This document shows positions 1 to 63,066 of a DNA stretch of 64,000 nucleotides, in pieces. The stretch comes from Amoebophrya sp. A120 (lineage: Eukaryota; Protista; Dinoflagellata). A program made the translations under genes and the position numbers. Below the pieces are notes generated by a model. The model had not been told where the DNA came from. It searched no databases and saw only the letters and a program-made list of their open reading frames with translations. Each line of letters opens with the position of its first letter. Position 1 is the stretch's first letter. The stretch is taken from positions 2,997,412 to 3,061,411 of the forward strand of contig CAJINV010000012.1 of NCBI GenBank assembly GCA_905178155.1. Direction: 5' to 3'.

Positions 1-1914
1 ACTCCCGACGGAACTCCTCGTGCCTTTTCTCGCTCGCCTCGACCTCGTTCAGCAATTCCGTGATTTTCCGCTGGTACTGCCGCTTCATCACACTATCCAG
101 GTGTTGGAGGCTCTTGGTTGATGTTGTACTTCTAGCAGGACTGGTGGGCGGATGATCGAGAACAAGATGATGATCACCAGCTCCTGGCTCACCCCCTGGA
201 GAAGTGCTGTTCTTGATGCCCCCTCCGACATTTTTGATACTATTCGCCAGCTCCGCCTTGGTTTCCTCGAGTAACAGCTCCAACTCCTGAATACGGTGCA
301 AATCTTCCAACCGCGGGCTCTTCTCGACCGGCGCCAGCACGCTCGTGCCAAACGCGACCGAGGGGCCTTCGTGGAAGTCGTCGTCCTCTTCGAAAGAGTG
401 GCTATCATTTGGATTGCGCTCTTGCGCAGCTGCTGCCCTTGTCGCGGGCGAAGATTTGTTCATTGTCATATTATTTCTGCTGGTAAATTGCGCCTGGAGC
501 TCCAGCTCTTTCACCTTCGACTTCAACCTCTCGTTTTCCTCTTCAAATTGCAGCACTGCGGTTTTGAACCGAGTCGCTTCTTCATTTTCTTCCTCCAACT
601 CTTGGACTCGCAACCGCAGGTCCTGCAAAATATTTTCCTTCTCGCTAAGCATGTTTTCGTACTTCATTGATTTATTCTGCAGTTCCATCTCCAGCTCCGC
701 CACGGCGGTCTCTCTCTCCTGGGTCGTCGCCTGCAATTCCTCGCGGAGAAGCTGCAACTCTACTTCGGCGTTTTGCTCTGCAGCACCTTTTCCTTTATTT
801 CCCCCCTCGTCCGTGAGCTGCATCGCCGGCGAAGTAGTAGATCCGGCTCCGGAGGTTACTCGCCTGGCACTCAGGTCGTGGTCATAACCGCCTCCCCTTT
901 CATCATTCTGCTCCGGCGACAAAACGCCAGCGGAGGAGGAACCGCCCGCGGCCAACTGCGCGTCCTTCTCTTCCAACTCGTTGTTGAGCTCCACAAGCTG
1001 TGCTGTGCAAAAGTATCGCGCTCGTAGTAATTGCAAACATGCATTACAAATCTTGGTCTTAAGGTAAATCCGCATTACAAATTTTATTATCCCATACTGA
1101 GGAAATTTGTAATGCATTTATACGAGTACGATACTTTTGCAATGCATACCAGCTCTGTCTCGAGCGTTTCCTTGATCAACTCGAGCGTTTCCAGTTGCTT
1201 TCTCAACTCGGTGTTTTCCTGCTCCAGTTTCTCCTGCTGCTGCTGCGCGGCTTGCGAACCAGGGCCACCAGCGTGATCGTTTTGAAAAGGATTCCTTCCC
1301 CGCAGTCCCCGCTCAAACGCCCGCCCGCTCGTCTCCGAGCTAACATCGGAAGACTGGTCCTCATCGGGGACGAAGTTTTGCTGATTTTTCCGCAGGTTCT
1401 TCGCTTTTTTGTTTTTCATGGTTCTTCCCCGACGGAAATTGTCGTCTTCGAGCGCAGAATCGACCTCCGAGTCGTCCTGCATTTGTTCCCGGTGCTCCTC
1501 ATTTCCTTCCGCGATCTCCTCCAGCTGCGTTTCCAAATCCTTTACCCTCTCCTCGTAGAAGTCGTCTTTCAGCTTCAGTTTTCGCAAAAACGCGTTTTTC
1601 TCCGCCTCAAATTTCTCCTGCACGCGGTGCTTTTTGTACACCAGATACACACTGAGAAACAGCAGCCAGCAGGTGAGGATGACAAAAATCCAGGTCGCAA
1701 GGGTCGTGGATTCTGACGTAACCAGCACGATGATGAAGAACAAGATGGGGAAAAACAGCAGAAAAACCACCAAATAAGCCCGCTCCAATCGCTGCCGCTG
1801 GTCCTTGGACAGCGACTGGGCGAAGCTGGGCTTCATCGGTGTTGGTGCCATGGCTCCACCTGAGCCACCACCTTGTCCAGAGGGTTGTGCTAGTACAACT
1901 CCTGGAGCTTTCAT
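1..1914 (-). CDS. Coiled-coil protein with two N-terminal TM helices; 2 exons seen, runs off the window start
   Basis: ATG at 1914; hydrophobic helices AYLVVFLLFFPILFFIIVLV and LATWIFVILTCWLLFLSVYLVY. Removing the intron at about 998-1149 joins ETEL to LVELNNELEEKDAQ; an E/L/K-rich frame then stays open to position 1. Confidence 0.8.
999..1148. mobile_element. Introner, family D
   Basis: TIR tgtgctgtgcaaaagtatcg / cgatacttttgcaatgcata; DR caagc/ccagc; also removable as GT-AG 998-1149. Confidence 0.85.
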
Positions 1915-2895: not shown

Positions 2896-5800
2896 TCACC
2901 CGGTTTTCGGCTTTTTCGCGTTTTTGTCTTCCATGACAATGTCGAAACTTTTCGGCGGCGTGTCCGGCATCACGCAGGAGATGCGCTTGTAGAGATATCA
3001 AATGCGCAAATGTCTGGGTCTGGAAGATTCCGAGATTTGTCATGCAGTTTTTCAAGCTCCGCCAGGTCTGGAATGCAGGGCCTAGCATCACAGGTTCTGC
3101 AGCCCCTTGGTGATGCCTATTCTGCATGAGAAATGCCCTCTCAACATGGCCAGAAGTGGGGACCTTTTGCAAGTCATGCAACACAGATTTTTGTATGATC
3201 CGCAACACGCATCACAAGTTCGGATTCTTCCAGACCCAGATGACATTTTTACATTTGATAAGAGACACATGTAGGCGATCTGCGTATCCGCGCGGCCGCC
3301 CTGCAGGTCCAGATTTATTCCGGTGATCTGCTTCCACTCGTATTGCAGCACATCCTCATCGTCGAACAGGAGCTGTTGTGATTTGTATTGCACAGCATCT
3401 ACTAATGTAACCAATTCACGAATTACTCGCCTTTGCCATGCAGAGTTCAGAACTCAGAAAAAATCTCTGATGCAGAAACCACTGCACAAACTGTACCCAT
3501 TGGTCGTCCTTGTAGTCTTTCCCATCTGCGGAGTGGTTCTTCACCCACCCCACATAGTGGCCGCCCTGGAGACTTCGGCCTTTGTGGGACACGATACCGA
3601 CCAGCTCGTATTGCCCGGTGTGGAAGTCTTTCATTTTCTGGTCGACTTCCATGGGAACAACTGCGATATAGGTGGTATTGCAAATTTTGCATGACAAAAG
3701 TAGAGCTAGTAGTCATTTTTGCATGACAAGTTTTTCATCGTGGTGACAAGGACAACTAGGCCATCTATGCATGACAAGTATGATACAGTAAACTGTTTAT
3801 TTAATACCTGCCTCTTTCTTCTCTTCCTCTTCCTTTCCGAAGTTCTTAATTTTTTCCTGCTCTGCCTCCACCTCGGCCTCCCGCTTTTCCCGGAGTTTCA
3901 GCCGGCCCACGGACAAATCTTTCTGCAAGTCTGCGGAAGCGTAGTCGTAGACGTCGAGCGTCGAGCTAAACGCGCACTTCCGCACCATCTTCACCGCGCT
4001 GGCCTCGGTGCCCGCGACGGTGTTGGCCTGCTTGTAGCCGAACCGGGCAAACTGGACCCACAGGTAGTCGGGGAGCGACGCCATACACGTAGATTTCTCA
4101 TACTGGGCGAGGCGGCCTGAAAGTGAAAGTTGGGATGGCGCATCAGCATGACAGAAGATGTTCTTAAAGTGAAAACCTCTCTTGCATTATGGCCAATGAT
4201 ATTACCGTGATGCAGAAGTTGTGATTAACAGGAATGAATCATGCTGCAATCATCAGTACTTACCTAAGCTGGGACTGTTTTTCTCCAGGTGCTCCTTCAA
4301 GCTGTGTTTAATCCCCTCGTGCATGTGCGACACAGGCTCGGTGGTGGAGCCCATGTGGCAGACAAAGAAGCGGTAGGACTTTATCAAAAGGAAAAATCCC
4401 CCCTCTCCGCATCGAAAAGGTATGTTTCCGAAAATTTGCGTTGCTGGTTTGAGGTCACAAGTCGCATTTGTCTTGCAAGAAGACAGGGCCAGAAGCTTCG
4501 CCCCGTCATGGAAGCGATTTGTCATGCTGTTGGGCCTAGAGGGGAACCGTTTGCCATGCTGAACAACTAGACCCATACGCCCCTACCTCGCCTGGGGATC
4601 TGGTCGCAATGCCTCTCTGCAGTGCAAAGCTGATTTGCGTACACAAATCCAGCATCAGAAATTCCGTTTTGATATGGGGAGGGGGGATTTTTCCTTTCGA
4701 TAGACTCTTGTCGCTCTTCTGGCGGCTCGTCCTCAGACTCCAGGCACTTGTACCTGATACAGCGAAGTAGATTTGGTATCCTTTTTAATGGCTCCAAGCA
4801 TGACAAACCACTTTTTTTTTGCCTCTTTACGCATGACAAGTAATCATTTACTAATCACTGAACAATGCGACTTCTGTTTTTCTTACTGGCTCTTCATCCG
4901 GAACCCGAACAAGGAGTCCACTATGTTCGTTGTTTTCCCGTCCACCTCCTTTTGCGTCGCGTTGCCGATCACCGAGAACATTTCTCGCAGGCACTCCTCT
5001 GCGTCTTGCTGCTGGTAGTTCGGCGGGTTCCCTGTAGCCTGGCCAAACTGTGGGAATCTCTGCCGCAAGGTGTTGACAAAAGCAAACGGGGTGACGGTGT
5101 CGGTGGTAGACTCCATCTGGTTGAAAAAATTCCGCATCGAGGTGACGAACTGCCCGTCGCTGGGCGCGCCGAGACTGCCCGCGAAGGAGGAAGAACTGGA
5201 GGAGGAGGAGCTTGGAATCAATCCGTCCTTGAACTCGGGCACCGTTTTCAAAACTTGCACAACGGAGTTCATGTAGCAGGTGTTCCCGAGATTTTTCAGC
5301 CCGCACGGGAGCACCTCGATCTTCTTTTCCTTCAAAATTTTTGCCCTTTCTTCCGCGGTGAGATCCTCCATGAAAACCGTTTTCTCAGCCGGCTTTTCGA
5401 TCTCCTTTCCCTCGGCAGTGCCGATCTGATAGTACGAAGATTTTTTGATGGTGAGGAACGGGTTGACCAAGGTTTCAGGACACATTATATTTTCCTCGTT
5501 TATCTCCTGCAACTTTTTCAGCAACAGTGAAAATAAATTGTGCATGATGCACAACTACCTCTACATTCTCGAGAAATGATCTTCAACAGTGCAACTCCGT
5601 GTCTACTTACTTGACCTTCTTATACCAGCTGCACTTTCGCATTCGGTTTCAGCTTCTTGATTTTTGCCGTCAGGTCGTCCGAATCCTTTAACAAACCGCC
5701 GGCAAATCCGAGGAATTTCATCCGATCCGTCGGCACGTTGGTCTATCCTGTGCAAAAGTATCGCACTCGTATAAATGCAAGTGTTGCATTTTTTTCGTAT

Positions 5801-5994
5801 CGTAAATCCGCATTACAAATTTTATTTCTCACGCGGAGGAAATTTGTAATGCATTTATACGAGTACGATACTTTTGCAATGCATATGGTCATGGAATAAA
5901 CCAGGGATTTAAAATCCTCGACCGAAAGACCCTCTTCGACGTCGACGGTCAATTCTTGCTTCCCCCATTTCAAAGGCAGCTTCATGTTGGGCAT
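2896..5994 (-). CDS. USP14: Ubiquitin carboxyl-terminal hydrolase 14 / Ubp6 (9 exons)
   Basis: N-terminal UBL (LKWGKQEL...NVPTDRMKFLG); Cys box GLKNLGNTCYMNSVVQ; QQQDAEEC; His box GIVSHKGRSLQGGHYVGWVK; WLLFDDEDV; IAYMCLY. Introns at 5744-5885, 5426-5625, 4754-4886, 4382-4702, 4117-4263, 3661-3807, 3373-3496, 2996-3260; stop at 2896-2898. Confidence 0.95.
2996..3260. mobile_element. Introner, family A
   Basis: TIR tatcaaatg...tctgggtctggaa / ttccagacccaga...tttgata; DR agaga; joins YMCL-YKRI. Confidence 0.9.
4382..4702. mobile_element. Introner, family B
   Basis: TIR tatcaaaaggaaaaatcccc / ggggatttttcctttcgata; DR gactt/gactc. Confidence 0.9.
5744..5885. mobile_element. Introner, family D
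   Basis: TIR tatcctgtgcaaaagtatcg; DR tggtc; joins SMT-NVPTD. Confidence 0.9.
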
Positions 5995-6691: not shown

Positions 6692-9593
6692 CTACAAAGG
6701 TTGTGTCAGCGGATCGAGTAAAATCCCCAATAGATGCATCTCGTGGCCGATCTCGCGCATGAGCAGGTTGAGGAGCGTCTGCTTAATTTCGACTTTCGTG
6801 GGATTGCTGGCGTGGTGGTGGTAGAAGCAATATGCCCGTAGTCAAAACTTTCATCGTCTTCAGTACAATTTCGTGAACAAGGTGATGCAGTTACTACTTG
6901 TGGCGCTCCTTGTGCCAAAACATGCAGGATCATGCAGAGAGTACTGAATAGAAAGACCTCGACGTCTCTCCTCCATGCATACATTGGATAACGACTGTCC
7001 CAAGTCGCACCTCTGTTATACGAAGCTCTCCAGTCCTGATATTCCAGAAGGGAACTGAAACGTGCCTTAAGACGATAGCTTCTATCTTCCTGCATACCAG
7101 CGCGAGCAGCTTGACCTTCCAGGGGCAGCTGGCCTGCACAATCTCCTGCCACCGCCGCGGTTTCACAAACTCGACTTGCCATGTGCGATTCGGCACGGCG
7201 TCGTTCTGTTTTAGTAGAAAAACACGTTCGTAGCTTCTTGAATTTTCTTCCCCGCATCATGATCTTCTTCTTCGCTGTGAAGAACGAAGAACGAAAATGA
7301 TCAGTCACAACAGCACATACATGTCTGCTTATGACAAACAGCATCTTCAAGCAACCACTTTGCGAACAAAAAATTCAAATTACCGAAAATTCTTCCTGAT
7401 TCGAAGACGAAGATTACACCAAGATAGAAGTATAGCAAAATTACAAGCAAAAGGGTAGTAGAAGCTACTCCGCCGACTTTCCGTTTTGTCTGAAAGTCCC
7501 AGAGTCGCTTCAGCGATTCGAATATCGAATGCAAAGATGTCTGGGTCTGGAAGTAGCGTGGAACCTGTATTGCGTGTCTTGGATTCCTGTAAAATCTGTA
7601 TTGCATCAGCAACAAAAGGGATAGGGAATCTGCTTCTTCCGTCATGCAAGAAACGCGCAGCTTCTAATGCGCACTACGCATGAGGAACTGGAATTCGAAA
7701 ATTTTGTCATGCTTGGCTGCAAGCAGGAGTATGCTCAATCATGATCGCCACTCAGCATTACAAGTTTCCAGACCTAGGCATGTTTATTGCAATGGATATC
7801 GAAAGGTTCCTTCGCGGGATCCGGGTTCCACTCCGCCAGATCAGAGAACAGGTAGCGCTATCCAATGCAAATATGTATGCCGGTCTGGGTTTGTGATGCG
7901 AACTTTGAAGGATAGCGAGCATTTGTGATGCATGAACACGATCGAGCTGATTTTTTTGTCATGCTGTGGAACTCAGATTGTCATGCAAAACACCATAGAA
8001 CTCGCAATACCACCTGCAAAATTTGCGATGCGCGGACGCCGTACAAAAGATCGCTCTGCCATGCAAAACTCAGCAACACAAATTCGCTGCAGCGTCTTTC
8101 CAGACCCAGACATATCAATTTGCAGTTGATAAGCGCTCGACCCAGGAGCATCGCATTCGCTCGTCGGAGGTATACAGGCAGACACCGCGCATAAACCTGA
8201 CAGGGTTCGTTCTGTCGACATTTCATTCAAGTGTCAAAAACATTGTGCTGGGTAGTACTGAACAAACCCGCAGCTGAAAACAACACCCGACTTGTTCCTT
8301 GTGATACACGACAGCTGCACCCACTCTTGATACAGATGCGACATACAGTAGAAAGAAAAAACCAATTCTATCAAAATACGGCGTCCCCTCCCGATCAAAG
8401 TGGTTTGTGTAGAATCCCGGGCACTCGTTTGCCATCTTCACATTCAAATCCAGCTGGGGACAGTTGGCGCCGAAGTCTAAAATGCGGGCGAGCTTCTTGA
8501 TCATTTTCATTTTCAACTGCCTGCTATCCGGCTTGATTTTGTACATGTCCTTGTTGACGCAGCGGAGCCGCAGCACGTCGAAAATGTCCAAGAACTTCGA
8601 AGCCATGTGCAGCAGGTCGGACTTGTCAATGTTTTCATTCGCGTACTTTTTCAGACTATCGGAGAGCTGTTTCTCTTGTTCATAGTTGTGCTCGCCGTGC
8701 CATGCGTTGTAAAGCTCCTCCGTGTATTCAATGCAAACATGTCCTCTCGACGTGTTCTGGAAAATTTCTGGCACATCTCTTTAACTGCAGCCAAGCATGA
8801 CAAGTTTTTTGAAAGAACAAGACCGCTCCTGGTTCGTCATCATCATTTGTGCGCATATCGAGGAGGGAAGCTGCGTCCGTTTCATCTGCATGACAAAAGA
8901 CGCTTTGCTTGTGTCCTCGGCTAAGTATGCAACACAGACTTTACAGAAATGCAAATGCAAGGCAAGCATCACAAGTTCCACTTTTTCATACCCAGAGCAC
9001 ATATTTGCAGATGATACCGTGTCGGGATGAATTTTTCGTTTCGAACTCCCGTAAACATCTGTCGTGGTCCTGGAAGAGGTTCCATTCCCGCCGCCCCGAG
9101 TGGAACTTTTGTTCATCCCGAGATTACTACTATTTTTCGGCCTCGCTTTCGCTTTCCCACTGGCCTGCTTTCTCTGTGCCGTATTCATCTGCTCTCCTGC
9201 GGTGGTCAACATCTGGGCAGGAGCACCAGACGACGTAGTAGATTTGGCGCCGTAGGGACCGCTACGCGCCGCTGAGTTTTTATTTTTCAGATTGTTACTC
9301 CTCCCTCCTCCCGCGGGGCGCGACTCTGAGTCTATCTGATCCATGTTTTCCGGAAGCAGGTTCGAGAGGTCCACCGGTTTTTTCTTATTCCTGCTGGCGG
9401 AGTTCTGTGCCAGGAAGGATGTTGTCGAAATTGGTCCTCTCGAGGAACCGGGTGCGTGGTCGCCGGTTTTTGATGTCGCAGCACCGTCCAGTATCGCATC
9501 AAATGTGTGGTAATCCGGATTCATCGGCAAGGCGGCTGCCGAGGACGAGGAGGCAGAGCTCCCGCCCGCGGGGTTGTCAGGGACAGGCGGCAT
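6692..9593 (-). CDS. Hypothetical protein with low-complexity N-terminus and F-box-like motif; multi-exon, 3' end provisional
   Basis: ATG at 9593; introner removal joins HPDT-EELYNAW. DLLHMASKFLDIFDVLRLRCVNKDM resembles the F-box consensus. The frame continues across 7859-8131 and 7523-7798 (WVER-YLFSDLAEW...EPFE-SLKRLWDF). Exons below 7460 are uncertain. Confidence 0.6.
7523..7798. mobile_element. Introner, family A
   Basis: TAT...ATA, tctgggtctggaa TIR, DR tcgaa. Confidence 0.85.
7859..8131. mobile_element. Introner, family A
   Basis: TAT...ATA, DR agcgc. Confidence 0.85.
8725..9016. mobile_element. Introner, family A (diverged)
   Basis: TAT...ATA, DR ccgtg. Confidence 0.8.
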
Positions 9594-12500: not shown

Positions 12501-12642
12501 GTGGACTTCTATTTCTCCTTCTGTCCACAAAAAAAAAGGTGCGCAATTCTGGTGTGAGGTTAGTACCACTTTGCTCCTCAAATCTCGTTTTCTGTTCTGA
12601 ATTCTGTATTTTTCATTTCCGACATCAAAAGCCGCCTCACAT

Positions 12643-13420
12643 TCAGTACATCGGACCGCCGAAGCCCGGGTCCATCGGCGGGAAGCCACCCTTCATCGGC
12701 GGGGCGCCGAAGCCCGGGTTGAAGCCCTTGTCGAAGCCGCCCTTCGGCTGGAAGCCCTTGTCGAAGCCGCCCCCAAATCCCTTGTCCATTCCGAAACCTC
12801 CCTTCCCGAATCCGTTATCAAATCCGCCCTTCCCGAAACCGCCCTTCTTCCCGAATCCGCCCTTGTCAAACCCCTTTCCCTTTCCCTTGCCCTTCCCCTT
12901 TCCGCCCTTGTTGCTCATGCGCGGCACCCCGTCGCCGTTTCCGTGCACGTTGATGGCCGCGGTTTTGCCCTTGGCCTCGTCGTATCAACTGCAAAAATGT
13001 CTGGGTCTAGAAGAGTCAGGACTTGTCGTTGTCATGCACATTTCGCATGACCCATGAGGTCTGTAATGCTGGTGCTAGCATCACAGATCTTTTGAGAGCT
13101 TCTTGATGCTAATTACGCATGAGAAATGCCCTCTCGGCGTGCCAAGAACTGACTCGTCCTCTTGCTGCCCATGCACCACAGATATTTTTCGAATCCGCAG
13201 ACGGCATTACAAGTTCCACTCTTCCAGACCCAGACATATGTGCATTCCATACGTCGATCTGGGTATCGTAGGTAACCGTTTCGCCCTCGTTCAGCGCCTT
13301 AAACCCTTCTTTTTCGATCGAGGTGTAGTGGACGAACACATCGTCTCCGCCGTCCGAAGGCTGGATAAACCCAAAGCCTTTTTCGGCGTTGAAAAATTTC
13401 ACGGTGCCAGTCAGAGACAT
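12643..13420 (-). CDS. Cold-shock domain protein with Gly/Phe/Lys-rich tail (2 exons)
   Basis: [15 protein letters not shown] (RNP1) and DVFVHYT (RNP2); introner removal joins [15 protein letters not shown]; GFDKG repeats; stop at 12643. Confidence 0.93.
12983..13251. mobile_element. Introner, family A
   Basis: TAT...ATA, DR cgtcg. Confidence 0.9.
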
Positions 13421-14169
13421 TTTTTTTTGGTTTGCTTCGTTCTTCGACAAGAAGGAATCAATCTCGGAACGCGCTCTGTTGACAAGGAGAAGATGCAAGG
13501 TGATCTACTACTACGGTTGGTGAGACCACGAGAGTTTCTGGTTCTGGAAAAATTTACTCCGTAATATTAGAAGCTTGTTGTCAAAATGAAACAGGAGGTG
13601 ATTGTGAATTTATTATACAAACGTGTATGGCAGTGTAGGGCAGAAATCAAAATGTGACAGCAACTCAACAGATACTGATAGCTAGAAACCTGAAGGGCAT
13701 CGTAGTATAGGAAAAGGAGAACATGGCTTTGTCTACGTGTAGTGTCGTTGTGCAGCAGAGGAACTAAAAATTTATGTCGCTCACTCGTTCGCGCGGAGGG
13801 AGCTTGAGGCCACATTTTAGATTTGTGACGATTTTTACTCCAGGAGATTATTATACTGGTGGCTATTTGGTTTCGGATTAGGAAAAAGAAGGACGTGCTA
13901 CTTCCAAAAGCTTCTTGTAGTGTGTCCAGCTTACTTTACGGATCGCTTTGTGAAGAAACGTGGAGAAGTCTATCTGTTGTATGAAAAATGTGAGGCAACA
14001 ACAACAGTTCGTGTGCGTGCACGACTGCAGTCATGATGTGCTGTCCAAATAGAAATATCTCTGATCGCTCTCACTTCAGGAGAAGAAGGTAGCCGCACCG
14101 CGAACACCAGCAACGGGCAAAAACGAGAACTGCGCCGGATTCTGTAGGGGGGGCCAAGTGCAATCTTCT

Positions 14170-18197: not shown

Positions 18198-19582
18198 TTA
18201 GTAGAATCCGCCCTTGCCAAAGCCCTTGTCGAAGCCACCACCGTAGCCCTTGTCGAAGCCGCCGCCATAGCCCTTGTCGAAGCCCCCGCCGTAGCCTGTT
18301 GAATTATCGAGAAAACATTTTCTTTGAGCAAAAGTGTTTCTCCTGTCTCTAATTGCGTATGTGTAGACGTCCTTTCCCGCTGAAAATAAATCCGCCGTTG
18401 CAATCACATCAGCCACCTTCAGGCATACAAGACCGACAACAGACTTGCTAGCCAGCTGCAGCTGCAACAGCTATGTGGAGTCTGATCCTGATGTCACTAC
18501 CACAGTTAAAAACTATGCAGGAAAAATTCTAAACGAGGAATTCAAAGCACAAACCGAAAAAGCGCGAGGGATTATAGAAGCTAGCGGTCTTCTCCTCCGC
18601 TACTACTATAAAACACACGTTCCAAAACTGAAATAAACTGTATCAAAAATTATACCGTCGAAGCCGCCACCGTAGCCCTTGTCCATGCCAAAGCCGCCGC
18701 CCTTGCCGAAGCCGCCGCCCTTACCCTTACCGCCCTTCTGCTGGCGGGGGATGCCGTCACCCTTACCAGAAACGTTCATGGCCTATCCTGAGTAAAAACG
18801 TACCCATACCAGAGTCAGGATGGGGAATCTGCTAGACAAATCAGCCAGCTTTGGTTGTTTGGCATGACAGGTTTGTCCGCGTAGTGTAGTGCTGTTTGAG
18901 CTAGTTTAGCAGCATTACAGATCTAGTATCTCGTGCTGATTGGAGCATGACAAATTTCAAAACCGCATTAGAAAATGCTTCTCATGGGGCTCCGCATGAG
19001 AAACATTTTAAGCATGCAGAGTTGCATGACAACTATGGTGTGGGTACGTTTTTACTCAGGATATGGCCGCGGTTTTGTTCTTGGCCTGGTCGAAGGTAGT
19101 GTCGTAGAAGACGGTCTCACCCTTATCAAAGTGAAAAATCCCCCCTTCCCATATCGAAAAGGTATGTTTCCGAAAATTTGTGTTGCTGATTTGAGGTCGC
19201 AAATCACGTTTGTATTGCAAGAAGACAAGGGCAGAAGCTTCCGCCCATTATGGAGTCGATTTGTCATGCTGTTGGACCCAAAGGTGAGCCGTCTGTCATG
19301 CTGAGCAACTAGACCCATACGCCCCTACCTAGCCTGGGGATCTGGCCGCAATGCCTTCCTGCAATACAAAGCTGATTTGTGTACACAAATCCAGCATCAG
19401 AAATTCCGTTTTGATATGGGGAGGGGGGATTTTTCCTTACGATAACCCTCGTTCAGGGATTTGAAACCTTCCTTGTTGATGGCGGAAAAGTGGACGAAGA
19501 TGTCCTCACCTCCCTCGGCCGGCTGGATAAAGCCGAAGCCCTTCTCAGCGTTGAAAAACTTGACGGAACCCTGTTGCGACAT
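18198..19582 (-). CDS. Cold-shock domain protein with GYGGGFDK repeats (4 exons)
   Basis: [15 protein letters not shown] and DIFVHFS; introners at 19124-19444 and 18784-19063; GT-AG intron at 18296-18655; stop at 18198. Confidence 0.92.
18784..19063. mobile_element. Introner, family C
   Basis: TIR tatcctgagtaaaaacgtaccca / tgggtacgtttttactcaggata; DR tggcc. Confidence 0.92.
19124..19444. mobile_element. Introner, family B
   Basis: B-type TIR; DR accct; body very similar to 4382-4702 and 31383-31704. Confidence 0.92.
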
Positions 19583-20933: not shown

Positions 20934-23900
20934 TTACTCCGCATCGGGCTCGTCGGTTTCGTGAATGGCTACGTCCTCCAATTCGATCTGCACGATGTTC
21001 CCTTGCCCCCCGCCAATCGCTATCAACTGCAAATATGTCTCGGGATGGAAACTTGTGATGCTGACTGGCGAATCATGAAGACGCTACTAATCACGGCTCA
21101 GCATGACAAGTTACTCAGTTGCTAGGTGTTGTCTATCCAGCATGACAAACTGCGTTTTTGCATGGCAGAAAGCTGTGGCTTTTGGATAACGCGCATGACA
21201 GACTTCCGAGTCATGCTAGCCAAGCAAGACAAACTTGCACTCTTCCAGACCCAGACATATTTGCAGTGCATAATCGCGTGCGACAGCCGGGCGTCGTGCG
21301 CGGGTCCGAGCACCGACTCATCCGGCACTGATCCCATGTATGCAATACAAATCTACTTTTCCTGTAGTAGTACAAAACGCATCACAAATTTTTGTTTCAG
21401 CAACCTACAGTGTGTGCAATCTGTCATGCTGAATGGGCCACTAGAGGAACTTCTTGTCATGCAGAGTCCGCAGTTATTGTACGCGTACTACAAGACAAAA
21501 CTTTCTGTGGATACCGTGCCGTCTTCCTGCATGATGATCGGTCCGTTGCCCAGTCCCGTCCCGGTGGACACCGATTCGATTCCCGCGTTTGCGCCAATCG
21601 TTTCTTGGTCCATAGTATGCAGTGCAAATGTGTCTGGAAACCTGTGATGCAGATTTGCTGCTAATTGCAACGCTTACCATGGCAGCCACGCATGACAAGT
21701 TTTTGAAACGCTTTCTGATGTCTGGCACGCATTACAAGTTGCGTTTTCGCATGACAAAGGAAGCGGCTCCTCTGCTGCTCACACAACACAGATTTTCTAG
21801 GAATGCAAGACACACATTACAAGTTCCACTTTTCGTCCAGACCTAGACATGTTTGCATTCCATACAAAGCCTTTGCTTTTGCCTTGTCGGCGGCCTTGCC
21901 GGCGTGGTTCGGGAATTTTCCCTATGAACTGCAAAAGTATCGCACTAGTAGTAATTGCAATACAAATTAGCTCAGCATGACAAAGGGAGTTTGTCATGCT
22001 GTTTTGCCTTGGGATGGAGATTTGTAATGCATGACTGCCATTTTTACTACGAGTACGATACTTTTGCACAGGATATTCCCGCCTCCAGCATCTTCACATA
22101 CCCCTCGTACAGCAGCGCGAACTGGTCCCAGTTCATGTACAGTTCTTCGGTCTATCAAATGTGAAAATGTCTGGGTCTAAAAGAGTCATGCTGTTTTTGC
22201 ATGGCGCAGGAGGTCTGGCATGGAAGCTCTAGCATCACAGGTTTCGAGACGCTTCCGCAATGCCGAACCCGCATGAGAAATCCCCTATTTTGGTGACAGA
22301 AAGTCGGCAGCTTTTGCTACCTATGCATGAGAGATTTTTCAGTGTTCTAAAATGCGCATCACAAGTTCGGATCCTTCCAGACCCAGACATTTTTGCATTT
22401 CATACGGTCAGCGTGCTCGGATCTTCGACCGATTTCTCGAAAAACTCCATGCCGTCGATATGGAATGCAAAAGTGTCTGGGTCTGGGAGATGTCATGCTA
22501 GTCTGGCAAAAGTGACTCTGAACTCTGTATTGCGTGGCCGCGATGCGCTCCTCTTGCCTGCCATGCAAAAACGCAGTTTCTCATGCGGAGTACGCAACTC
22601 AGAACCACGGCAAAACTTGTCATGCTGGGCAGCGCATTACAATGCTTTCACTATTCCCTCTCTTGCATCACAAGTTTCCAGACCCAGACATATTTGCAAT
22701 GCATAATCAATGAGCAGGTTCAATTCCTGGGTGGTTAACTCCGACGAGGCGCCCGCGTCCTGTATCAAAAGGAAAAATCCCCCCACCCCATATCGAAAAC
22801 GTATCCGTCTGAAAATTTGTGATGCGCATTTGTGGCCTCAAATCCTGTCTGTCTTGCAAGAAGGCAAGTCCAGAAAGCGCCCCGCATTTTGCAGGCGGTT
22901 TGTGATGCTGTTGGGCTTAGAGCATACACGTTTGCCATGCTAGGCGCCTACGTCAAAACCTCGCGACTGAGGCTTGGCATATGCCTGCAGTCCTCTACTG
23001 CAAGACAGATCGGATTTGTATACGGAAATCCAGCATCAGAAACTTCGTTTCGATATGGGGAGGGAGGATTTTTCCTTTTGATATCCTGCAGCGCTTGTTT
23101 CGTCTTGCGGTAGAAGAGAATGCGACCACGCTCGTCGACCTGGGGTTTTCGTTTTTTGTTATAACGCGAACTTTGCATGAAAAACTGCTGTCAAGTAGCG
23201 TAGTTCCACGCATCACAAAATCTTTAGCTGCATCTTGTCGAAGTTAGCGCCTTATCTTACCATCGTCGCGTGCGTCGAGAAGGCCTTGTATAGCTTCGGG
23301 GACTCCAGGTAGAACCGCGCTTCCCGGGCACACAGCACGATGCAGCCGAGCAGCATGACCACGCCGAATAGGACGGACAGCGTTCCAAACGCGGTGCTCG
23401 ATTCCGTGGAGAACAGGTGCAAGGACATCCAGAAGTAGAACGGGGCTTGCCACAGCTGCGCGGGCTGCTTGATCATGGACACGCACAGCCAGACCGAGAA
23501 AAAAATTCGCAGCACCGCGTCGCAAAACTTCTGCAGATTGGACCCGGACTTTGGCTCGGTCTGACAAGTTTGTAGTTTTCTGATGGTTTGTACGTTCTGC
23601 ATCACTGACCGAGCTTTAAACCAGCATCGGACTCTGGCCTCGATTAAACCATGCTGGCTACAAGCACAAAGATTCCTGCACGTTGGCCACGAAGATGTTG
23701 AGATTCCCTCTAATATTAATTGTACTGTATACCTCCCTGACCAAGCAGTAGAAGACGTGGAAGAGCGCGCACAGGGTGCTGGAGTAGTACAGGATGAAGG
23801 TCAGATCGTGGTGCAAAAAGCGGTAGAACCGCTCGGATTTTCGCTCCGTCTGGAACTTTTTGATTTTTTCCACCAGCGACTGTTTCCGGGTGTAGGATAT

Positions 23901-24470
23901 CAAGTGCAAAAGTGTCTGGGTCTGGAAGACTGCATGTCTGTCATGCTTGTCTGGCATGACTCTTGAATCTGTCATGCACGTTACCAAAGAGCTCCACTTT
24001 TCTGTCATGCAGAAACAAAGTCTGTCATGCAAAATAGGCAAGAACGCCTAGAAGCTCAGAAACTTGTCATGCTGAGCCAGCACCTGTGGCCTCATCATGA
24101 TACGCCACCCGGCATCACAAGTTTCCAGACCCAGACATTTTTGCATTTGATATAGGAAACCGTGGACGGTTTCCGTGTCTCCTGCGGCCGCACTATGAGA
24201 GTGCGCAGCTCCCCCCCCCTCATTTCTATTGCATGAACAGAAATACGAAAACCCGCACACGTCGATGCCGCGCATGACAAGTTCGTGCGCTCAGTGTCGT
24301 CCAGTTTGGGCTTCCAAAATTTGTAATGCAGACAGTGCCACAAGGCAGCAACTGGATTTGGGATTTTGCATGACAAACGAGGGGGAGGGGGAGTTGTGCA
24401 CTTTTATACGCATCACAGACGCGTCTAAAGCAGCCTGGGAGCTGCTGTTGCTCCCGTGGAAGGAAGGCAT
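20934..24470 (-). CDS. Multi-pass membrane protein with EF-hand-like C-terminal region (about 12 exons)
   Basis: Reconstructed frame MPSFHGSN...VMR-PQETRK...LVRE-TEPKSG...TM segments...KQALQD-AGASSELTTQELNLLID-GMEFFEK...LYMNWDQFALLY...DEPDAE*; 10 introners plus GT-AG intron 23561-23732. Confidence 0.75.
21021..21272. mobile_element. Introner, family A
   Basis: DR atcgc. Confidence 0.88.
21339..21513. mobile_element. Introner, short diverged family
   Basis: TAT...ATA, weak TIR (tgtagta/tactaca), DR ccatg/ccgtg. Confidence 0.7.
21616..21864. mobile_element. Introner, family A (diverged)
   Basis: DR catag/caaag. Confidence 0.8.
21923..22075. mobile_element. Introner, family D
   Basis: TIR gcaaaagtatcg; DR ttccc. 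Confidence 0.88.
22153..22404. mobile_element. Introner, family A
   Basis: DR cggtc. Confidence 0.88.
22459..22705. mobile_element. Introner, family A
   Basis: DR gtcga/atcaa. Confidence 0.85.
22763..23083. mobile_element. Introner, family B
   Basis: DR tcctg. Confidence 0.9.
23160..23256. mobile_element. Short degenerate introner (about 100 bp)
   Basis: Weak TIR tataacgcgaactt / aagttagcgccttat, gcatcacaa motif, interrupts the frame. Confidence 0.55.
23898..24152. mobile_element. Introner, family A
   Basis: DR tagga. Confidence 0.9.
24194..24408. mobile_element. Introner, family G
   Basis: TIR tatgagagtgcgcagctccccc / gggggagttgtgcacttttata; DR cgcac/cgcat; related to 61215-61423. Confidence 0.85.
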
Positions 24471-25481: not shown

Positions 25482-28400
25482 TTATTTCTTCTTTCGGTTC
25501 TTTGCAAACGGGGACGGCAATGCAGCTGCACCGTCTTCTTCGTCTTCCGGACTTGTAGTGGCCATAAGAGTGGACGATTTGCTGTGATACAGGTTATTCC
25601 CCCTCTGATGCTCGTCGTTGTTCCCGTGACCTAGTACGTTGCCCTCCCCGTCAAACTCGGTTTCCAACCCTAAAAAAGACCGGTACACCGACCCGGAAAC
25701 CGCGTCCTTCTGGGCCATGTTGGTCGTCAGGTGGATGTTGGGCACCAGCCAGGGTAAAAGCAAGATCGGGATGAACGACATCACGCTGTGAATCAAGGCC
25801 GCGATCCAGAGATTTTTGAACTGCGCCGACTCCCCCTCTTCCGCCCGTGGGTGAATAGATAAGAAATCCAACACCACCGCCCCGTTCGCCCGTCCCTGCG
25901 CAAATCCCATAAGCGTAACCGAATGCAACAAAGCGAACATGACGGCTTCGAGTCTTCGCGGGCAGAGTAGCGACATCAGCGCGAAGAACGACATCAGAAA
26001 CCACACGTGCGTGAACTCGTACACCGCGGCGGACATGTATCCTGAGTAAAAACATCCCCACACCAGAGTCAAGATGGGGATTTTGCAACACAAACGGAGA
26101 ACTTTTGGGGTCACGCGTCACAAGTTGCAGTCCGTAGTGTAGTGCAGGTTAGCATGTGCAGCCGCATCACAGATTCATCTGCTCATCCTGTTCACAGCAT
26201 CACAAATTCCAAAACACGACTGGGAATGGTTCTCATGGGGATGCGCATTACAAGTCTTCCTGTCTTTGCAAATCTGCATTACAACTCTGGTGTGGGTACG
26301 TTTTTACTCAGGATAGCATGAGGATCAAAAACTGGTCCATCGCGGGCGTGGGAATGACGCGGGAGAACTGCAGCGCTATGGATGTGTCAGAGTTGAAATC
26401 GACAAAGTTGAAATAATTTGTCATGCATAAAATGGATGCCACTTGGAACCCAGTTTTCAAGTGGCGCATGACAAATTTCGGTGGTCCCTCAATCCAGTTT
26501 GTCATGCTGTTTAGGCAAAGAAAAGCGATTTTCTCATGCTACTTTACCAGCTCGATCTGTAACCCCAAACAGGCTGACAATCGGCCTCACTTGCCTGCTC
26601 TGCAACACACGTACCTCGGGTCATGCATTTTATGCATTACAAATTATTTCAACTTTGACGATTTCAAACCTGACACTTCCATAAGCGCCCCCGCCAGGTT
26701 ACAAACCATCGCGATCGCGGAGGACGTATCAAATGCAAAAATGTCTGGGTCTGGAGGCGTGCAAGATTTGTGATGCAGTTTTTCCATGACCCTTGAGGCC
26801 TGGAATGCAGAGCCTAGCATGACAAACGCTGTGAGGTGTCTATCATGCCTATCCTGCATGAGAAACTCCCTGTCAAACTGCTCAAAAGTGGACGTCTTTT
26901 GGTAATCATGCAACACAAATTTTTGCCTGCTTCAGATTCAGCATGACAAGTTGCATTCTTCCAGACCCAGACATTTTTGCATTTGATAGGACGCGTACAT
27001 TAAAGTGTACACCCGCACGTTCTGCATGTAGCTGGAGTAGAACCAGAACCCGAACAGGTTCATCACGTTGGAGAAGAGCGGGAGCCAGGTCGCGACGAAC
27101 ATGGTGGAGAAACCCGGGCTATCAACTGCAAATCTCCGTGGAAAGATAGCAAGACTTGTGATGCAGGTTTTCCATGACCCACGAGCTTTGTGATACAGAA
27201 CCTAGCACGACAGATTCTGCGGAATCTCTCCCATGCCACTCCTGCATGAGAAACTGTCTCTCAACTTTGTCAAAAGTGGACCACAACTTTTGGTATTCAT
27301 GCAACACAAATTTCTCCACGATCCAAATTTAGCATCACAACTTTACATGTCATCAGACCCAGACATACTTGCATTTGATACGGGCCTTCCGGGTACTGCT
27401 CCTTGCTGTCGATCATGAAGTAGAAGACCGCGCCGTCGATCGTGAAGGTGAAAAAGGTGCCGAAATAGAAGAACACCACCACCTTATCCCGTGGAAAAAC
27501 GTCCCCACGCCATATTCAAGATGGGGAATCGGCAAGACAAATCTACAAGCTTTGGCTGTTCTGCATGACAAATTTGGGCTCGTAGTGTAGTGTTGTTTGA
27601 GCTAGCTCAACAGCATCACAGATCTCGTGTACCATGCTGATTGTAGCATGACAAATTCCAAAACACAGCGAGAAAATGCTTCTCATGGGGCCCCGCATGA
27701 GAAACATTTTCACCATGCAGATTTGCGTTACAACTATGGGGTGGGCACGTTTTTAGATACGATACACCTTCGCGATGACCGGGGTGAGGACGGAAGCGGC
27801 AACCCCGATGGCGGAAATCGACATGAGGAAGGAAATCAGACAGGTGTTTAAAGGGGTGAGCTTCGCGATGGACAGAACAATCATCCCCACGGAAACGCCG
27901 ACGATGTAGAGGGAGAGAAAAACAATTTCGTTCGGGATCCGGGACTTCTCTTCAAGTTCCCCTGCAACGGAGCTTCGGGCGCCACCGCCGGCGGACGAGT
28001 ACCCGGTCTGGTCTTCGGGAGCGGTTTCCGTTGCGGAGTGGTCTGTTAGTATAAAAAAAGGATTTATTTTTCACCGCCTACAATTGGGCGCGTCGTGTGC
28101 TTTGTCTTATGCAACAGTTCGTCGACTAACGGAAGTACCGAACAAAAGTTGATGCAAAAAGGAAACATGTTCTTCTTCGACTAGTTAGATCATCCTACAA
28201 TTTCTCAGAAAAAACTACTTCGCTGTAGCTCACGCTATACTTCTATACCTTGCAAATAAGCCCCCGGCGCCTCTTCATCTCTCCTTTCCCGAAACGGCAC
28301 ATAGGTCGTTCCGACCGCGTCACCCGGCAACACCGCGCCGGTCGTCATCGCGTTTGCGCGGTCCTTATCAAATGTAAAAATGTCTGGGTCTGGAAGATTG

Positions 28401-31400: not shown

Positions 31401-31856
31401 CCCCTCCCCATATTGAAAAGGTATGTTTCCGAAAATTTGCGTTGCTGATTTGAGGTCGCAGATCGCATTTGTCTTGCAAGAAGAGAAGGGCAGAAGCTTC
31501 CGCCCCATTGTGGAAGCGATTTGTCATGCTGTTGGGGCTAAAGGGGAGCCGTCTGCCATGCTGAACAACTAGACCCGTACGCCCCTACCTAGCCTGGGGA
31601 TCTGGCCGCAATGCCTCTCTGCAATACAAAGCTGATTTGTGTACACAAATCCAGCATCAGAAATTCCGTTTTGATATGGGGAGGGGGGATTTTTCATCTT
31701 GATACCGCCGGGCTCCGCGTCCGCCGGCTCCGGATCCGTCTCATACTGGGTCGAAGCCTCCGCGTGGGTCTTCACCGGCTGCTTCTGCGCATTGAGGGCT
31801 TTGGCGTCGAGCAGGGCGTCCTCCTCATCGGACACGACGCTGTCCTCCGCCACCAT
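25482..31856 (-). CDS. BT1-family folate/biopterin transporter, MFS (16 exons)
   Basis: FMFQPLWGIMSESLPFVHRKLPF matches the BT1 PW..KP..G..SD..P motif; many TM segments; 13 introners plus GT-AG introns 31097-31335 and 28043-28248; stop at 25482. Confidence 0.82.
26038..26315. mobile_element. Introner, family C
   Basis: DR acatg/gcatg. Confidence 0.88.
26377..26683. mobile_element. Introner, family E
   Basis: Long TIR tatggatgtgtcagagttgaaatcg / cgatttcaaacctgacacttccata; DR agcgc. Confidence 0.9.
26727..26988. mobile_element. Introner, family A
   Basis: DR ggacg. Confidence 0.9.
27120..27380. mobile_element. Introner, family A
   Basis: DR cgggc. Confidence 0.85.
27485..27764. mobile_element. 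Introner, family C
   Basis: DR cacct. Confidence 0.88.
28366..28627. mobile_element. Introner, family A
   Basis: DR gtcct. Confidence 0.9.
28674..28928. mobile_element. Introner, family A
   Basis: DR tcccc. Confidence 0.9.
29154..29464. mobile_element. Introner, family C
   Basis: DR cccac/cccgc. Confidence 0.88.
29530..29809. mobile_element. Introner, family C (opposite orientation to 18784)
   Basis: DR gatcg. Confidence 0.88.
29907..30165. mobile_element. Introner, family A
   Basis: DR gagac. Confidence 0.9.
30213..30524. mobile_element. Introner, family B
   Basis: DR cgttc. Confidence 0.88.
30554..30818. mobile_element. Introner, family A
   Basis: DR aaatc. Confidence 0.9.
31383..31704. 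mobile_element. Introner, family B
   Basis: DR ccgcc. Confidence 0.92.
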
Positions 31857-61100: not shown

Positions 61101-63066
61101 AACCAGCATCACAAGTCATCTCCAGACATCCCCATCCAGATGAGATATTTGCGTCTGATAAACTCTGCGGCTCGTACCCGGCGTTCTCCCGATGCTCCCG
61201 CATCTTCCGCCGCATATGAGATTGCACAATTCCCCCTCGTCCCCTCATTTGTCATGCGAAATCCCAAATCCGGTGGGTGCTTTATGGCGCGGTTTGCATG
61301 ACAAATTCCGGAACAAGCTGGGACAGTACTACACTAGGCCCAGGAACTTGTCATGCACTCCTATTGCTATTCATGCCATACACAAATGAGGGGAAGCAGG
61401 GGGAGTTGTGCACCAATCTCATACCGCAGCATCTGGTGCGCGAAACGTGCCGCGGTTCGGGCCTTCGGCCCGTACGCTTGCACGTATTCTGCTATCAAGT
61501 GCAAATACGTGGGTCTGGTGCACATTTTGCATGACTCGTGATGCCTTTAATGCATGACCTAGCATCACAGATTTCTAGAGGGCTTCCTGGTGCGTGTACT
61601 GCATGACAAAAGCCCTCCCAGCGTAACACAAAGCCGCCTCCTCTTGCTGGTCATGCAATACAGATTTTTTTGGAATCCGAAGACAGCCTCACAAGTTACA
61701 ACCTTCCAGGCCCAGACATATTTGCAGTTGATATCCGCCTCGTTCTTGCATTTGTCCGCCTTTGGCTTGGTCCGCGACGCGTATTGAGAGGAAAGGTCCC
61801 CCCCATATCGAAAAGGTATGCTTCCGAAAATTTGCGTTGCTGATTTGAGACCACAGATCGTGCCTGTCTTGCAAGAAGACACGCGCAGAGGCTTCCGCGC
61901 CATTAGGGAAGCGATTTCGCATGCTGCTGGGCCTAGGGGCCGGCCGTTTGTGATGCTAAGCAACTAGATCCGAACGCCCCTACCTAGGCTGAGGATCTGG
62001 CTGCGATGCCTTAAAGCAAGGCAGCGCGCACTTGTGTACGGAAATCCAGCATCAGAAACTTCGTCGCGATATGGGGAGGGGGGATTTTTCCTTACGATAA
62101 CGCGCGCTGCCGCTTTTCGTCGGCCAACTGCTTCAGAATCTTCTTCTTATGCTCGTAGTACCGCGCGGTGGCCGCCTCTAGCTTGGAAAGCGAGAGGGAT
62201 TTTGATGCTTGTTTCTTGGATACATTGGTCTTGTTTTGTCGTGGTGCTAACAAGCTGCTGCTGTTTGGAAACTTCATGTTCTTCGCCTGGGCAGCAGCGC
62301 CGTTTGCAGCTCCAGAAGCAGAAGAGATGATCGCAGAATTGTTCAGATTTTTACTGTTCGATGACAAGACCGAGAGATTCAGAAAATCGTTTTCTCCATC
62401 ACTTTTCGCGGACACCATCGAGTCGTCGAGATTCGCGCTTTTCGCCCTATTGCTCCCTTTCGCTTTAGTTTTCAACCCGGCTGCTCCTGAAGATGCAGGA
62501 CCATCAACCCCTCCGGGCGTGAAAAACCTACTACTGCTCGTCCCCTCGGAGGATCGGGAGGAAACAACAGACTGGCGGACCCCACCCGCGTTACTAGAGT
62601 TCGATTTTTTCCTACTGGACGTCGTCCCTTTCTGCAACAAGTCTACTTTCCCGCTCTTAATAGTCGAAGAAGCTACTGAAGATTTCGAGGAAGAAGCCGG
62701 CGTTTTTTTGGCACTGTCAGGAGGAGCAGCGGACGAGGCAGCCGTGCCTGTCTTGTTGTTTTTGCTGGATGCGGCAGGACCACGACCATCATCGCCATTG
62801 GCGTTTTTAAGCTGATCTTCGGCTCGTTTCAACTTCTTCTTGTTCCCGCCTTTATTATTCTCACCCCCGGCTGCTGAACCCTCTTCGGCGTTGGAATTGT
62901 GATTGTCGCTTGCTTTCCGTTTCTTCGACGGCTCGGGTTCTTTGTCCGCTTTGCTGGTGGTCGCTTTGTCCTGCTTGGAAGTGGAAGACGGAAGAACTTT
63001 CATAGCCGTTGCTGCAGTAGCACCGGAAAGACTACTGCTCGCGGCGTCTTGTTTTTTCGGCGGCAT
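52180..63066 (-). CDS. Large protein with low-complexity termini, ankyrin-like repeats and a U-box-like segment (about 24 exons)
   Basis: One frame from MPPKKQD (63066) across 22 introners plus GT-AG intron 60225-60410; DVWGRTQYNDTPIHVLL, DACGRTILHVCA, DKLGKRAHDY; TNPRTKE...KLIPDNALREKL. Confidence 0.72.
52627..52885. mobile_element. Introner, family F
   Basis: TIR tataacgtgctca...gttacaatctcaa / ttgagattgtaac...tgagcaggtcata; DR acgtg. Confidence 0.88.
53102..53367. mobile_element. Introner, family A
   Basis: DR tgggt; body similar to 2996-3260. Confidence 0.9.
53427..53704. mobile_element. Introner, family C
   Basis: TGT...ATA; DR tgttg. Confidence 0.87.
53851..54026. mobile_element. Introner, D-related short family
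   Basis: aaaagtatc/gatactttt TIR; DR tcgac. Confidence 0.8.
54231..54540. mobile_element. Introner, family E
   Basis: DR acagg/acagt. Confidence 0.88.
54588..54840. mobile_element. Introner, family A
   Basis: TAT...GTA; DR gtttt. Confidence 0.87.
55115..55263. mobile_element. Introner, family D (reverse orientation relative to 5744)
   Basis: DR cctct/cctcc. Confidence 0.85.
55344..55609. mobile_element. Introner, family C
   Basis: DR gggct. Confidence 0.88.
56217..56474. mobile_element. Introner, family F
   Basis: DR ttctt; related to 52627-52885. Confidence 0.88.
56805..57069. mobile_element. Introner, family A
   Basis: DR cgtgc. Confidence 0.9.
57258..57543. mobile_element. Introner, family C
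   Basis: DR tccgt. Confidence 0.87.
58045..58200. mobile_element. Introner, D-related
   Basis: TIR tatgcattgcaaaa / ttttgcaatgcata; only gcg shared in the flanks. Confidence 0.8.
58448..58717. mobile_element. Introner, family A
   Basis: TGT...ATA; DR tgccc. Confidence 0.87.
58921..59069. mobile_element. Degenerate short introner
   Basis: tatcac/gtgata ends, gcattacaaa motif, no clear DR. Confidence 0.65.
59120..59381. mobile_element. Introner, family A
   Basis: DR gatca. Confidence 0.9.
59477..59736. mobile_element. Introner, family A
   Basis: DR ccaat/ccagt. Confidence 0.87.
59834..60138. mobile_element. Introner, C-related singleton family
   Basis: TIR tattacaatgaaaaatgcccccacccc / ggggtgggggcttttctcactgtaata; DR ccgcg. 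Confidence 0.85.
60477..60719. mobile_element. Introner, family A
   Basis: TGT...ATA; DR tgggc. Confidence 0.85.
60851..61160. mobile_element. Introner, family A (diverged)
   Basis: DR gcctc/aactc. Confidence 0.78.
61215..61423. mobile_element. Introner, family G
   Basis: TIR tatgagattgcacaattccccct / agggggagttgtgcaccaatctcata; DR ccgca. Confidence 0.88.
61493..61733. mobile_element. Introner, family A
   Basis: DR tctgc/tccgc. Confidence 0.85.
61782..62099. mobile_element. Introner, family B
   Basis: DR acgcg. Confidence 0.88.

Follow-up and report, generated by a model that had tools for sequence, protein, structure and literature searches.

A window of 64,000 nucleotides from the dinoflagellate Amoebophrya sp. 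A120 (contig CAJINV010000012.1, positions 2,997,412 to 3,061,411 of the forward strand; the window always means this whole stretch) contains 65 transposon-like inserts, all between positions 999 and 62099, which, where checked, are absent from RNA together with exactly five adjoining bases. With very high confidence, these elements possess terminal inverted repeats (TIRs) and a uniform flanking direct repeat (DR) of 5 bp, belong to families occurring in both orientations, are retained in DNA contigs and, for 24 of the 65, are removed as element plus five bases. The best explanation for the whole, to which we give an even chance, is the insertion of transposons followed by a ruler-like removal, likely by a divergent spliceosome. 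The cuts would keep a fixed register to the element ends, N-TAT…ATA-NNNN, in which 1+4 equals the length of the duplication and the frame would be restored without reading the repeat; for this register itself the odds are about even. The elements are published, but their borders have been called unknown and their removal left unexplained, and the fixed register is a refinement. If true, it would collapse many reported border dinucleotides into one rule, explain how transposons can flood exons without harm, offer a usable signal to gene finders and show where a lariat should be sought.

Identity with published introners

Proteins bearing the name Amoebophrya sp. A120 match three exons of the window at 100% identity, and the elements are therefore those described as introners by Farhat et al. 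2021 (PMC7789003; statements on published work here refer to excerpts of the papers cited). The match with reported Amoebophrya introners, claimed in the original prediction, is thus borne out, but the phenomenon, being already known, is less new than it had been scored there. Farhat et al. 2021 report RNA-seq-supported non-canonical introns in A120, a share of 65% for non-canonical introns there, 29,850 repeated introns and no transposase; the inverted repeats (IRs) begin with TAT, seven nucleotides and AAA, and the DRs measure 3-5 nt, with one example of 5 bp. Gene models in that study came from EST2GENOME/BLAT and the intron table from HISAT2. In the window, the TAT-N7-AAA pattern is found at one or both ends of 56 of the 65 elements and at both ends of 39, and the correspondence includes the A120 genome itself (by protein identity), DRs within 3-5 nt, repeated families, RNA-supported removal at borders other than GT-AG and the lack of an internal transposase. 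The difference lies in the DRs, put at 3-5 nt in the paper, and in the borders, called variable and unknown there; here all families have a duplication of 5 bp, counted from the ends of the TIRs, and likely a single register. No statement of a fixed cut register was found in the literature searched, in which Farhat et al. 2021 was covered without its figures and supplement parts 1, 4 and 5; the text of that paper, figures aside, does not mention the common internal motif described below, and the excerpts of PMC12005148 and PMC11453091 hold nothing further on mechanism. A120 introners have also been assigned to several classes of transposable elements, including TIR elements with integrase-like open reading frames (ORFs) (PMC12130899).

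Number, ends and families of the elements

The elements were sought by a scan without preset end motif, which required a flanking repeat and a TIR, with repeat lengths varied from 5 to 8 bp and shuffled sequences as controls. All 19 matches combining a tight TIR with a 5-bp repeat begin with TAT; a repeat of 6 bp gave one match, and repeats of 7 and 8 bp gave none. A looser 5-bp scan returned 28 matches in the window versus 1, 5 and 2 in three shuffles, without any shuffle match beginning with TAT, and a TIR scan blind to the repeat yielded 57 candidates versus one in one shuffle. Omitting three of these 57 that are without the internal motif (at 94, 1376 and 33878), adding 11 by eye and redrawing the ends of two led to the list of 65 (Table 1).

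The DR is exact in 46/65 elements and has at most one mismatch in 59/65; the remaining six show two (three elements), three (one element) or four mismatches (two elements). An exact DR of 4, 6, 7, 8 or 9 bp occurs in none of the 65. TAT…ATA ends are exact in 59 elements, TGT/ACA replaces one end in five and the sense-5' end is TAC in one; 64 elements are 140-340 bp long. BLAST groups them into seven multi-copy families (30, 10, 8, 5, 3, 2 and 2 elements) and five singles, with identities within families of up to 93%, and five of the seven families are present in both orientations. The largest, family A with its 30 elements, has an orientation ratio of 23:7 relative to the transcript. The claims of about 65 TIR elements with TAT…ATA ends and a 5-bp DR, mostly 140-340 bp in length and forming at least seven families, were confirmed. 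The rule postulated to be uniform applies to most elements, but six carry 2-4 DR mismatches and the element at 58921 seems to need another skip length; likewise, the TIRs are not wholly unrelated, TAT(C/G)nnnnGnAAA-like ends being common to all and GCAT[CGT]ACA being present inside 65/65.

The elements share TIRs, a target-site duplication (TSD) of fixed length and a lack of coding capacity with non-autonomous TIR DNA transposons (MITEs, for miniature inverted-repeat transposable elements), and small DNA transposons duplicating five target bases are the likely origin of the elements. No transposase, in line with the original prediction, was found by a Pfam scan of 40 ORFs or proteins, drawn mostly from 141 ORFs of at least 100 amino acids in 1-54000, the remainder of the window lying outside the scan; Rfam gave no match for 1-54000. 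Approximately 63 of the 65 elements lie inside ORFs, and long intergenic stretches (for example 9700-12600, 13600-18200 and 32000-34300) are without any. That every gene is interrupted holds for the recognised ORFs, which do not amount to a full annotation; the element at 50423 lies outside any long ORF.

The motif GCAT[CGT]ACA occurs 202 times in the 18.8 kb of elements versus 14 times in the other 45.2 kb. The TGTNATGC/GCATNACA motif is about 35-fold denser in elements than elsewhere. Seven of the 14 copies outside the elements fall in four of eight ordinary introns (3661-3807, 4117-4263, 4754-4886 and 23140-23260), all as TGTNATGC in sense. Allowing one mismatch, 17 elements have the motif at a distance of 25-60 nt from their sense 5' end alone and four from their 3' end alone (p=0.007); exact matches are distributed 17 vs 11 (p=0.34). 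As a lead only, its role might be that of a repeat bound by the transposase, of an intron enhancer or of both.

Removal from RNA

RNA junctions were read over 12600-31900, among the joints listed, in contigs of the runs X3 and X5, which represent one sample and whose RNA nature is guessed and not on record; a run of raw RNA with the same species label (X9) placed only 10 reads and was uninformative. At cold-shock gene 2, X3/X5 contigs have joints skipping 285 (280+5) and 326 (321+5) nucleotides, and in cold-shock gene 1 a record of X3 connects 12977 with 13252 (269+5). In one X3 record, 439 and 196 letters lie between mapped pieces, where 560 and 368 would remain once seven and two elements are taken out at +5; the excess of 121 and 172 nt corresponds exactly to two GT-AG introns. 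In total, RNA evidence comprises three direct junctions and nine elements by record-length sums, with 53 of the 65 elements lying outside the RNA reading. For 21 of 21 elements in four deposited proteins (P0001, P0002, P0078 and P0079), only a skip of length plus five matches among offsets from -4 to 11. The union of RNA contigs and proteins amounts to 24/65 elements, the other 41 resting on reading frame or pattern.

Once 7 and 15 elements are taken out at +5, ORFs of 1073 and 1184 codons appear, compared with at most 389 codons in the raw sequence. USP14 (P0002) is 80% identical to its A25 orthologue without a gap at element junctions, one of which reads IAYMCLYKR in P0002 and IAYMCLYRR in A25. 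This motif, the cold-shock protein junction skipped at 269+5 and the TIDDG of NodB (P0079) are the examples which the original prediction had expected to be restored, and all of them are; removal at the RNA level with one repeat copy, as stated there, is upheld for the 24 elements. Run X1 behaves as DNA, with a depth of about 44-54 that is even across intergenic DNA and falls to 0 at two listed element joints; its unique contigs run into elements and one spans 21339-21513 whole, the elements being retained in these DNA contigs. X3 and X5, on the other hand, also skip GT-AG introns and have no intergenic cover.

Position of the cut

Where the repeat copies are identical, the mRNA is the same in six registers, and it is unequal copies that reveal the register, expressed here as k, which counts how many bases of the downstream repeat fall within the intron. 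Over any element+5 register, GT-AG is possible in 2/65 elements and GC-AG in 2/65 (GT-AG at k=4 in 1/65); the elements hence do not have the GT/GC-AG borders of U2 introns, and the assertion that many offer no GT-AG pair proved right. Unequal copies flank 19 elements, of which eight are informative, seven differ synonymously only, two are without a protein to check and two without a recognisable repeat. The informative ones require k to be at least 1 at 24194 (RNA contig end and protein) and at 4382 (protein; the Glu is also present in A25), at least 3 at 21339 and 21616 and at least 4 at 35226 (proteins), and at most 4 at 26038 (RNA contig end), at 45650 (protein) and at 60851, where k=5 would give a stop codon. 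Only k=4 fits all eight (permutation 1/56, p≈0.02; monotone labelings 5/256). Since these constraints stem mostly from gene models, the fixed register should be taken as a lead, and existing RNA-seq could test it on thousands of elements with differing repeat copies.

The elements at 22459, 46875 and 35226, with two to three mismatches between their DR copies, are nevertheless removed at +5 in deposited proteins, which implies that a repeat match is not needed. Of the proposed system recognising the TIR hairpin plus the DR, the precise loss of one repeat copy is supported, but recognition of the DR is not; the informative cases agree with cuts at constant distances from where the TIRs end. Synonymous changes make up about 10 of the 22 DR positions that are mismatched (hand count, 58045 and 58921 left out), as would be the case were one copy of every base free to drift.

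All 65 elements have the same T and A at the sense 5' end, and all five TGT/ACA variants (three families, both orientations) have their change at the sense 3' end. The ordinary introns examined begin with GTA and end with CAG (8/8), and with k=4 the elements would supply T+2 and A+3 as these donors do, in 65/65 elements if the value read from eight of them is right. The lone sense-5' variant, TAC at 54588, matches one ordinary donor, GTAC. According to Table S4 of Farhat et al. 2021 (PMC7789003), all nine predominant motifs are NT-NN in A120 and all nine TT-NN in A25, where the IRs begin with TTA; combined with TAT ends in A120 and TTA ends in A25, both read N-T-A.

A number of observations speak against this register. 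Only two of the eight constraints come from RNA contigs (k at least 1 and k at most 4), one from a stop codon and five from gene models, and in four of the latter five (21339, 21616, 35226 and 45650) k=4 yields a GT start, so that they could stem from an aligner that favours GT; Table S4 of Farhat et al. 2021 may share the same bias. At 35226, NodB homologues allow Ala (k=3) besides Glu, and the closest has Ala. There is no clear enrichment of G at donor +1 (23/65; 10/19 vs 13/46, p=0.09), an acceptor AG is found in 3/65, an in-frame GT..AG lies within 12 nt in 27/65, and the 5:0 asymmetry of the end variants is small. The region of 58921 forms one ORF only if either 58921 or 59120 skips +4 (mod 3); of this pair, 58921, which is without a repeat, is likely the one off the rule. 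Concerning the hairpin, G·U and A·C pairs in sense are balanced at 40:40 (17:17, 23:25 and 43:34 with other window sizes), and therefore do not point to selection for pairing in the RNA of one particular strand.

Some further candidates were examined. A YAG-like acceptor formed by ATA and a repeat G (k=1) was rejected, with G being there in 25/65 (p=0.086) and proteins needing k of at least 3; a T-P expected for the NodB motif at 35226 was dropped as well, P0079 having T-E and 0/11 aligned homologues having P there. Among 10 tests for G enrichment in mismatched repeats none fell below 0.08, and G at TIR position 4 (5' only vs 3' only, 15 vs 6, p=0.078) is tied to family orientation.

Proposed mechanism and alternatives

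In the mechanism which we propose, a DDE-type transposase would insert the elements with a 5-base stagger, and in RNA the TIRs would close a terminal hairpin. Its prediction gives z -8.4 for the element at 19124 and a mean terminal pairing probability of 0.71 (above 0.5 in 52/64 elements); the minimum free energy is lower in sense in 41/64 (p=0.012), a comparison confounded by strand composition. The cuts would be set by the distance from the stem, one base before TAT and four after ATA, and the sum of five would restore the exon without the repeat being read. TA(T) might serve as donor positions +2 to +4 without G+1, the hairpin would place the acceptor without AG, and a divergent spliceosome would perform the removal. 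In spliceosomal introns, mutual recognition between the donor G+1 and the acceptor G takes place during the second splicing step, and losing both together would therefore be coherent. Given the register, we consider it rather probable that the spliceosome, and not a separate nuclease/ligase, does the chemistry, since the bases that never vary sit at positions used by ordinary donors, and U2, U4, U5, U6 and most spliceosome proteins are retained in A120 (83/89; no U1 small nuclear RNA is reported, Farhat et al. 2021, PMC7789003). A120 would then possess a second splicing code, a proposition that we regard as evenly balanced: any TAT…ATA hairpin would be cut one base upstream and four downstream, with neither G+1 nor AG, and every insertion would be silent at once, in either orientation and in any sequence. 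A25, with TTA ends and TT-NN borders, would have the same N-T-A donor.

Insertion and ruler could also be combined with another executor, and it is possible, though we doubt it, that a non-spliceosomal nuclease/ligase or second machinery removes the hairpin, as proposed for the nonconventional introns of euglenids. Such an enzyme would require neither G+1 nor AG and would be indifferent to orientation, as is observed, and it would find the strong terminal pairing predicted above; moreover, Euglena measures spacers from a paired motif, N3CDG…CH'GN5-6|R (PMC12501133), and releases circular products (PMC11282704). It would leave unaccounted for that the invariant sense T-A falls exactly on +2/+3 of ordinary donors, and the internal TGTNATGC, shared with ordinary introns 7:0 in sense in four of eight, hints at a common machinery. 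Somewhat less probable than this is the version of the original prediction, in which the cut has no fixed place inside the repeat or the join is guided by the repeat, any register giving the same mRNA. The 46 exact repeats, in which the register is invisible, suit it, as does the legend of Fig. 3 in Farhat et al. 2021 (PMC7789003), which calls splice sites variable relative to the hairpin, and the register constraints rest partly on gene models; yet mismatched elements still leave at +5, their synonymous positions look as if one copy of each base drifts freely, and 8/8 informative elements agree on k=4.

Two explanations would dispense with a special removal from RNA. A layout of hairpin and short repeat favours template switching by reverse transcriptase, a known artefact, and the skips could reflect this or excision from DNA; contigs drop rare alleles and the RNA label of the runs is guessed. 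We regard this as very improbable, because X1 contigs enter and span elements with no depth at the two joints, X3/X5 skip GT-AG introns too without covering intergenic DNA, and conserved proteins such as USP14 need the removal. Splicing at nearby ordinary GT-AG sites is refuted as a general rule and is the least probable explanation of all, although it may hold for single elements such as that at 999. In its favour are the 27 elements with an in-frame GT..AG close by, and the fact that 999 and 55115 are readable as GT-AG; against it, 19124 and 23898, which were inspected for such a pair and have none, are still removed at +5, and all protein matches are at +5 only.

Comparison with other intron and transposon systems

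The nonconventional introns of euglenids (Nomura et al. 2025, PMC12501133; PMC11282704) resemble the elements in that a motif near either end pairs with the other, spacers of fixed length lead to the cuts, the 3' spacer is the longer one and traces of TIR/TSD are present. Their signature differs from the N1TAT…ATAN4 inferred here, where the paired ends are TAT/ATA, and their purine rule at the exon start has no counterpart, a purine being present in 43/65 only. The introners of Micromonas and Aureococcus and MITEs (PMC11282704, PMC7789003) likewise are non-autonomous TIR elements with TSDs that turn into introns and, when spliced, give up one copy of the TSD, but they obtain canonical sites from the element or the TSD, whereas the TSD here is free sequence. 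Integrase-type transposons of the Ginger2/Tdd group (Bao et al. 2010, PMC2836005) share TIRs and a TSD of 4-5 bp (Tdd-4/5 make 5-bp TSDs), and TIR introners with integrase-like ORFs are reported for A120 (PMC12130899). Their termini are TGTNR, in contrast to the TAT…ATA prevailing here with TGT at one end in five elements, and no transposase is linked to the families of the window.

Genes and other features of the window

The recognised genes, encoding USP14, two cold-shock proteins, two BT1-family transporters, a polysaccharide deacetylase and unnamed proteins, all lie on the minus strand, as do the features of Table 1.

Table 1 Elements (families A to G or single) and one ordinary intron in the window; k as defined in the text
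Feature	Position	Strand	Remarks
Family D	999..1148	-	DR 1 mismatch; sense 3' ACA; in-frame GT..AG alternative
Family A, USP14	2996..3260	-	exact DR; all +5 registers without GT or AG
Family C, USP14	4382..4702	-	DR mismatch; k≥1
Family D, USP14	5744..5885	-	exact DR
Family A	7523..7798	-	exact DR; weak host ORF
Single	7859..8131	-	exact DR
Family A	8725..9016	-	exact DR
Family A, cold-shock gene 1	12983..13251	-	RNA contig skip at +5
Family B, cold-shock gene 2	18784..19063	-	RNA joint 285 = 280+5
Family C, cold-shock gene 2	19124..19444	-	RNA joint 326 = 321+5; hairpin z -8.4
Family A, P0001 gene	21021..21272	-	
Single, degenerate TIR	21339..21513	-	k≥3; DNA contig spans whole
Family A	21616..21864	-	k≥3
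Family D	21923..22075	-	
Family A	22153..22404	-	
Family A	22459..22705	-	2 DR mismatches, still +5
Family C	22763..23083	-	
Ordinary GTA…CAG intron	23140..23260	-	one of 8 donor controls
Family A	23898..24152	-	no in-frame GT..AG within 12 nt
Family F	24194..24408	-	k≥1, RNA contig and protein
Family B, BT1 gene	26038..26315	-	k≤4, RNA contig end
Family E	26377..26683	-	
Family A	26727..26988	-	
Family A	27120..27380	-	
Family B	27485..27764	-	GT-AG possible at k=2
Family A	28366..28627	-	
Family A	28674..28928	-	
Family B	29154..29464	-	DR 1 synonymous mismatch
Family B	29530..29809	-	
Family A	29907..30165	-	
Family C	30213..30524	-	
Family A	30554..30818	-	
Family C	31383..31704	-	short host frame
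Family C, polysaccharide deacetylase	35226..35563	-	3 DR mismatches, still +5; k≥4
Family A, splits TID-DG	35619..35871	-	sense 3' ACA
Family A	41994..42331	-	DR mismatch; k=4 predicts Thr
Family A	42977..43238	-	
Family B, 2021 bp	43413..45433	-	nested 1.7-kb insert; +5 removal in P0078
Family E	45650..45954	-	k≤4
Family A	46514..46813	-	
Family A	46875..47155	-	2 DR mismatches, still +5
Family A	47677..47929	-	
Family C	48440..48761	-	
Family B	50423..50701	-	outside long ORFs (untranslated region or intergenic)
Family G	52627..52885	-	
Family A	53102..53367	-	
Family B	53427..53704	-	sense 3' ACA
Family D	53851..54026	-	
Family E	54231..54540	-	DR 1 mismatch
Family A	54588..54840	-	sense 5' TAC
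Family D	55115..55263	-	GT-AG at k=4
Family B	55344..55609	-	
Family G	56217..56474	-	
Family A	56805..57069	-	
Family B	57258..57543	-	
Single	58045..58200	-	4 DR mismatches; frame fits +5
Family A	58448..58717	-	sense 3' ACA
Single	58921..59069	-	no DR; frame suggests +4 (mod 3), apparent exception
Family A	59120..59381	-	
Family A	59477..59736	-	DR 1 synonymous mismatch
Single	59834..60138	-	
Family A	60477..60719	-	sense 3' ACA
Family A	60851..61160	-	2 DR mismatches; k=5 stop, so k≤4
Family F	61215..61423	-	
Family A	61493..61733	-	DR mismatch creates AG at k=4
Family C	61782..62099	-	

Several single loci deserve mention. The long element at 43413-45433 harbours a 1727-bp insert (43444-45188) with a poly-T end and an 18-bp duplication, resembling a retrotransposon without long terminal repeats (non-LTR-like), and P0078 removes the whole 2021 bp at +5. 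The same protein, encoded within 40928-49835, stops just past 42838, and an ORF of 523 codons lies beyond an apparent short ordinary intron, so that the deposited model may be truncated. Around the element at 35226, the flanks (35221-35568) are exact reverse complements and not direct repeats, which lengthens the hairpin by 5 bp. The element at 999-1148 can also be read with GT…AG borders in frame, and perhaps it is on its way to becoming an ordinary intron. In the cold-shock paralogues (12643-13504 and 18200-19612) the elements occupy different sites, and each gene shows the empty site of the other. An ORF on the minus strand at 40170-40784 has an endonuclease/exonuclease/phosphatase domain (PF03372) and is likely a remnant of a long interspersed nuclear element, and the stretch 38345-39178 is duplicated at 39258-39962 (81-89%).

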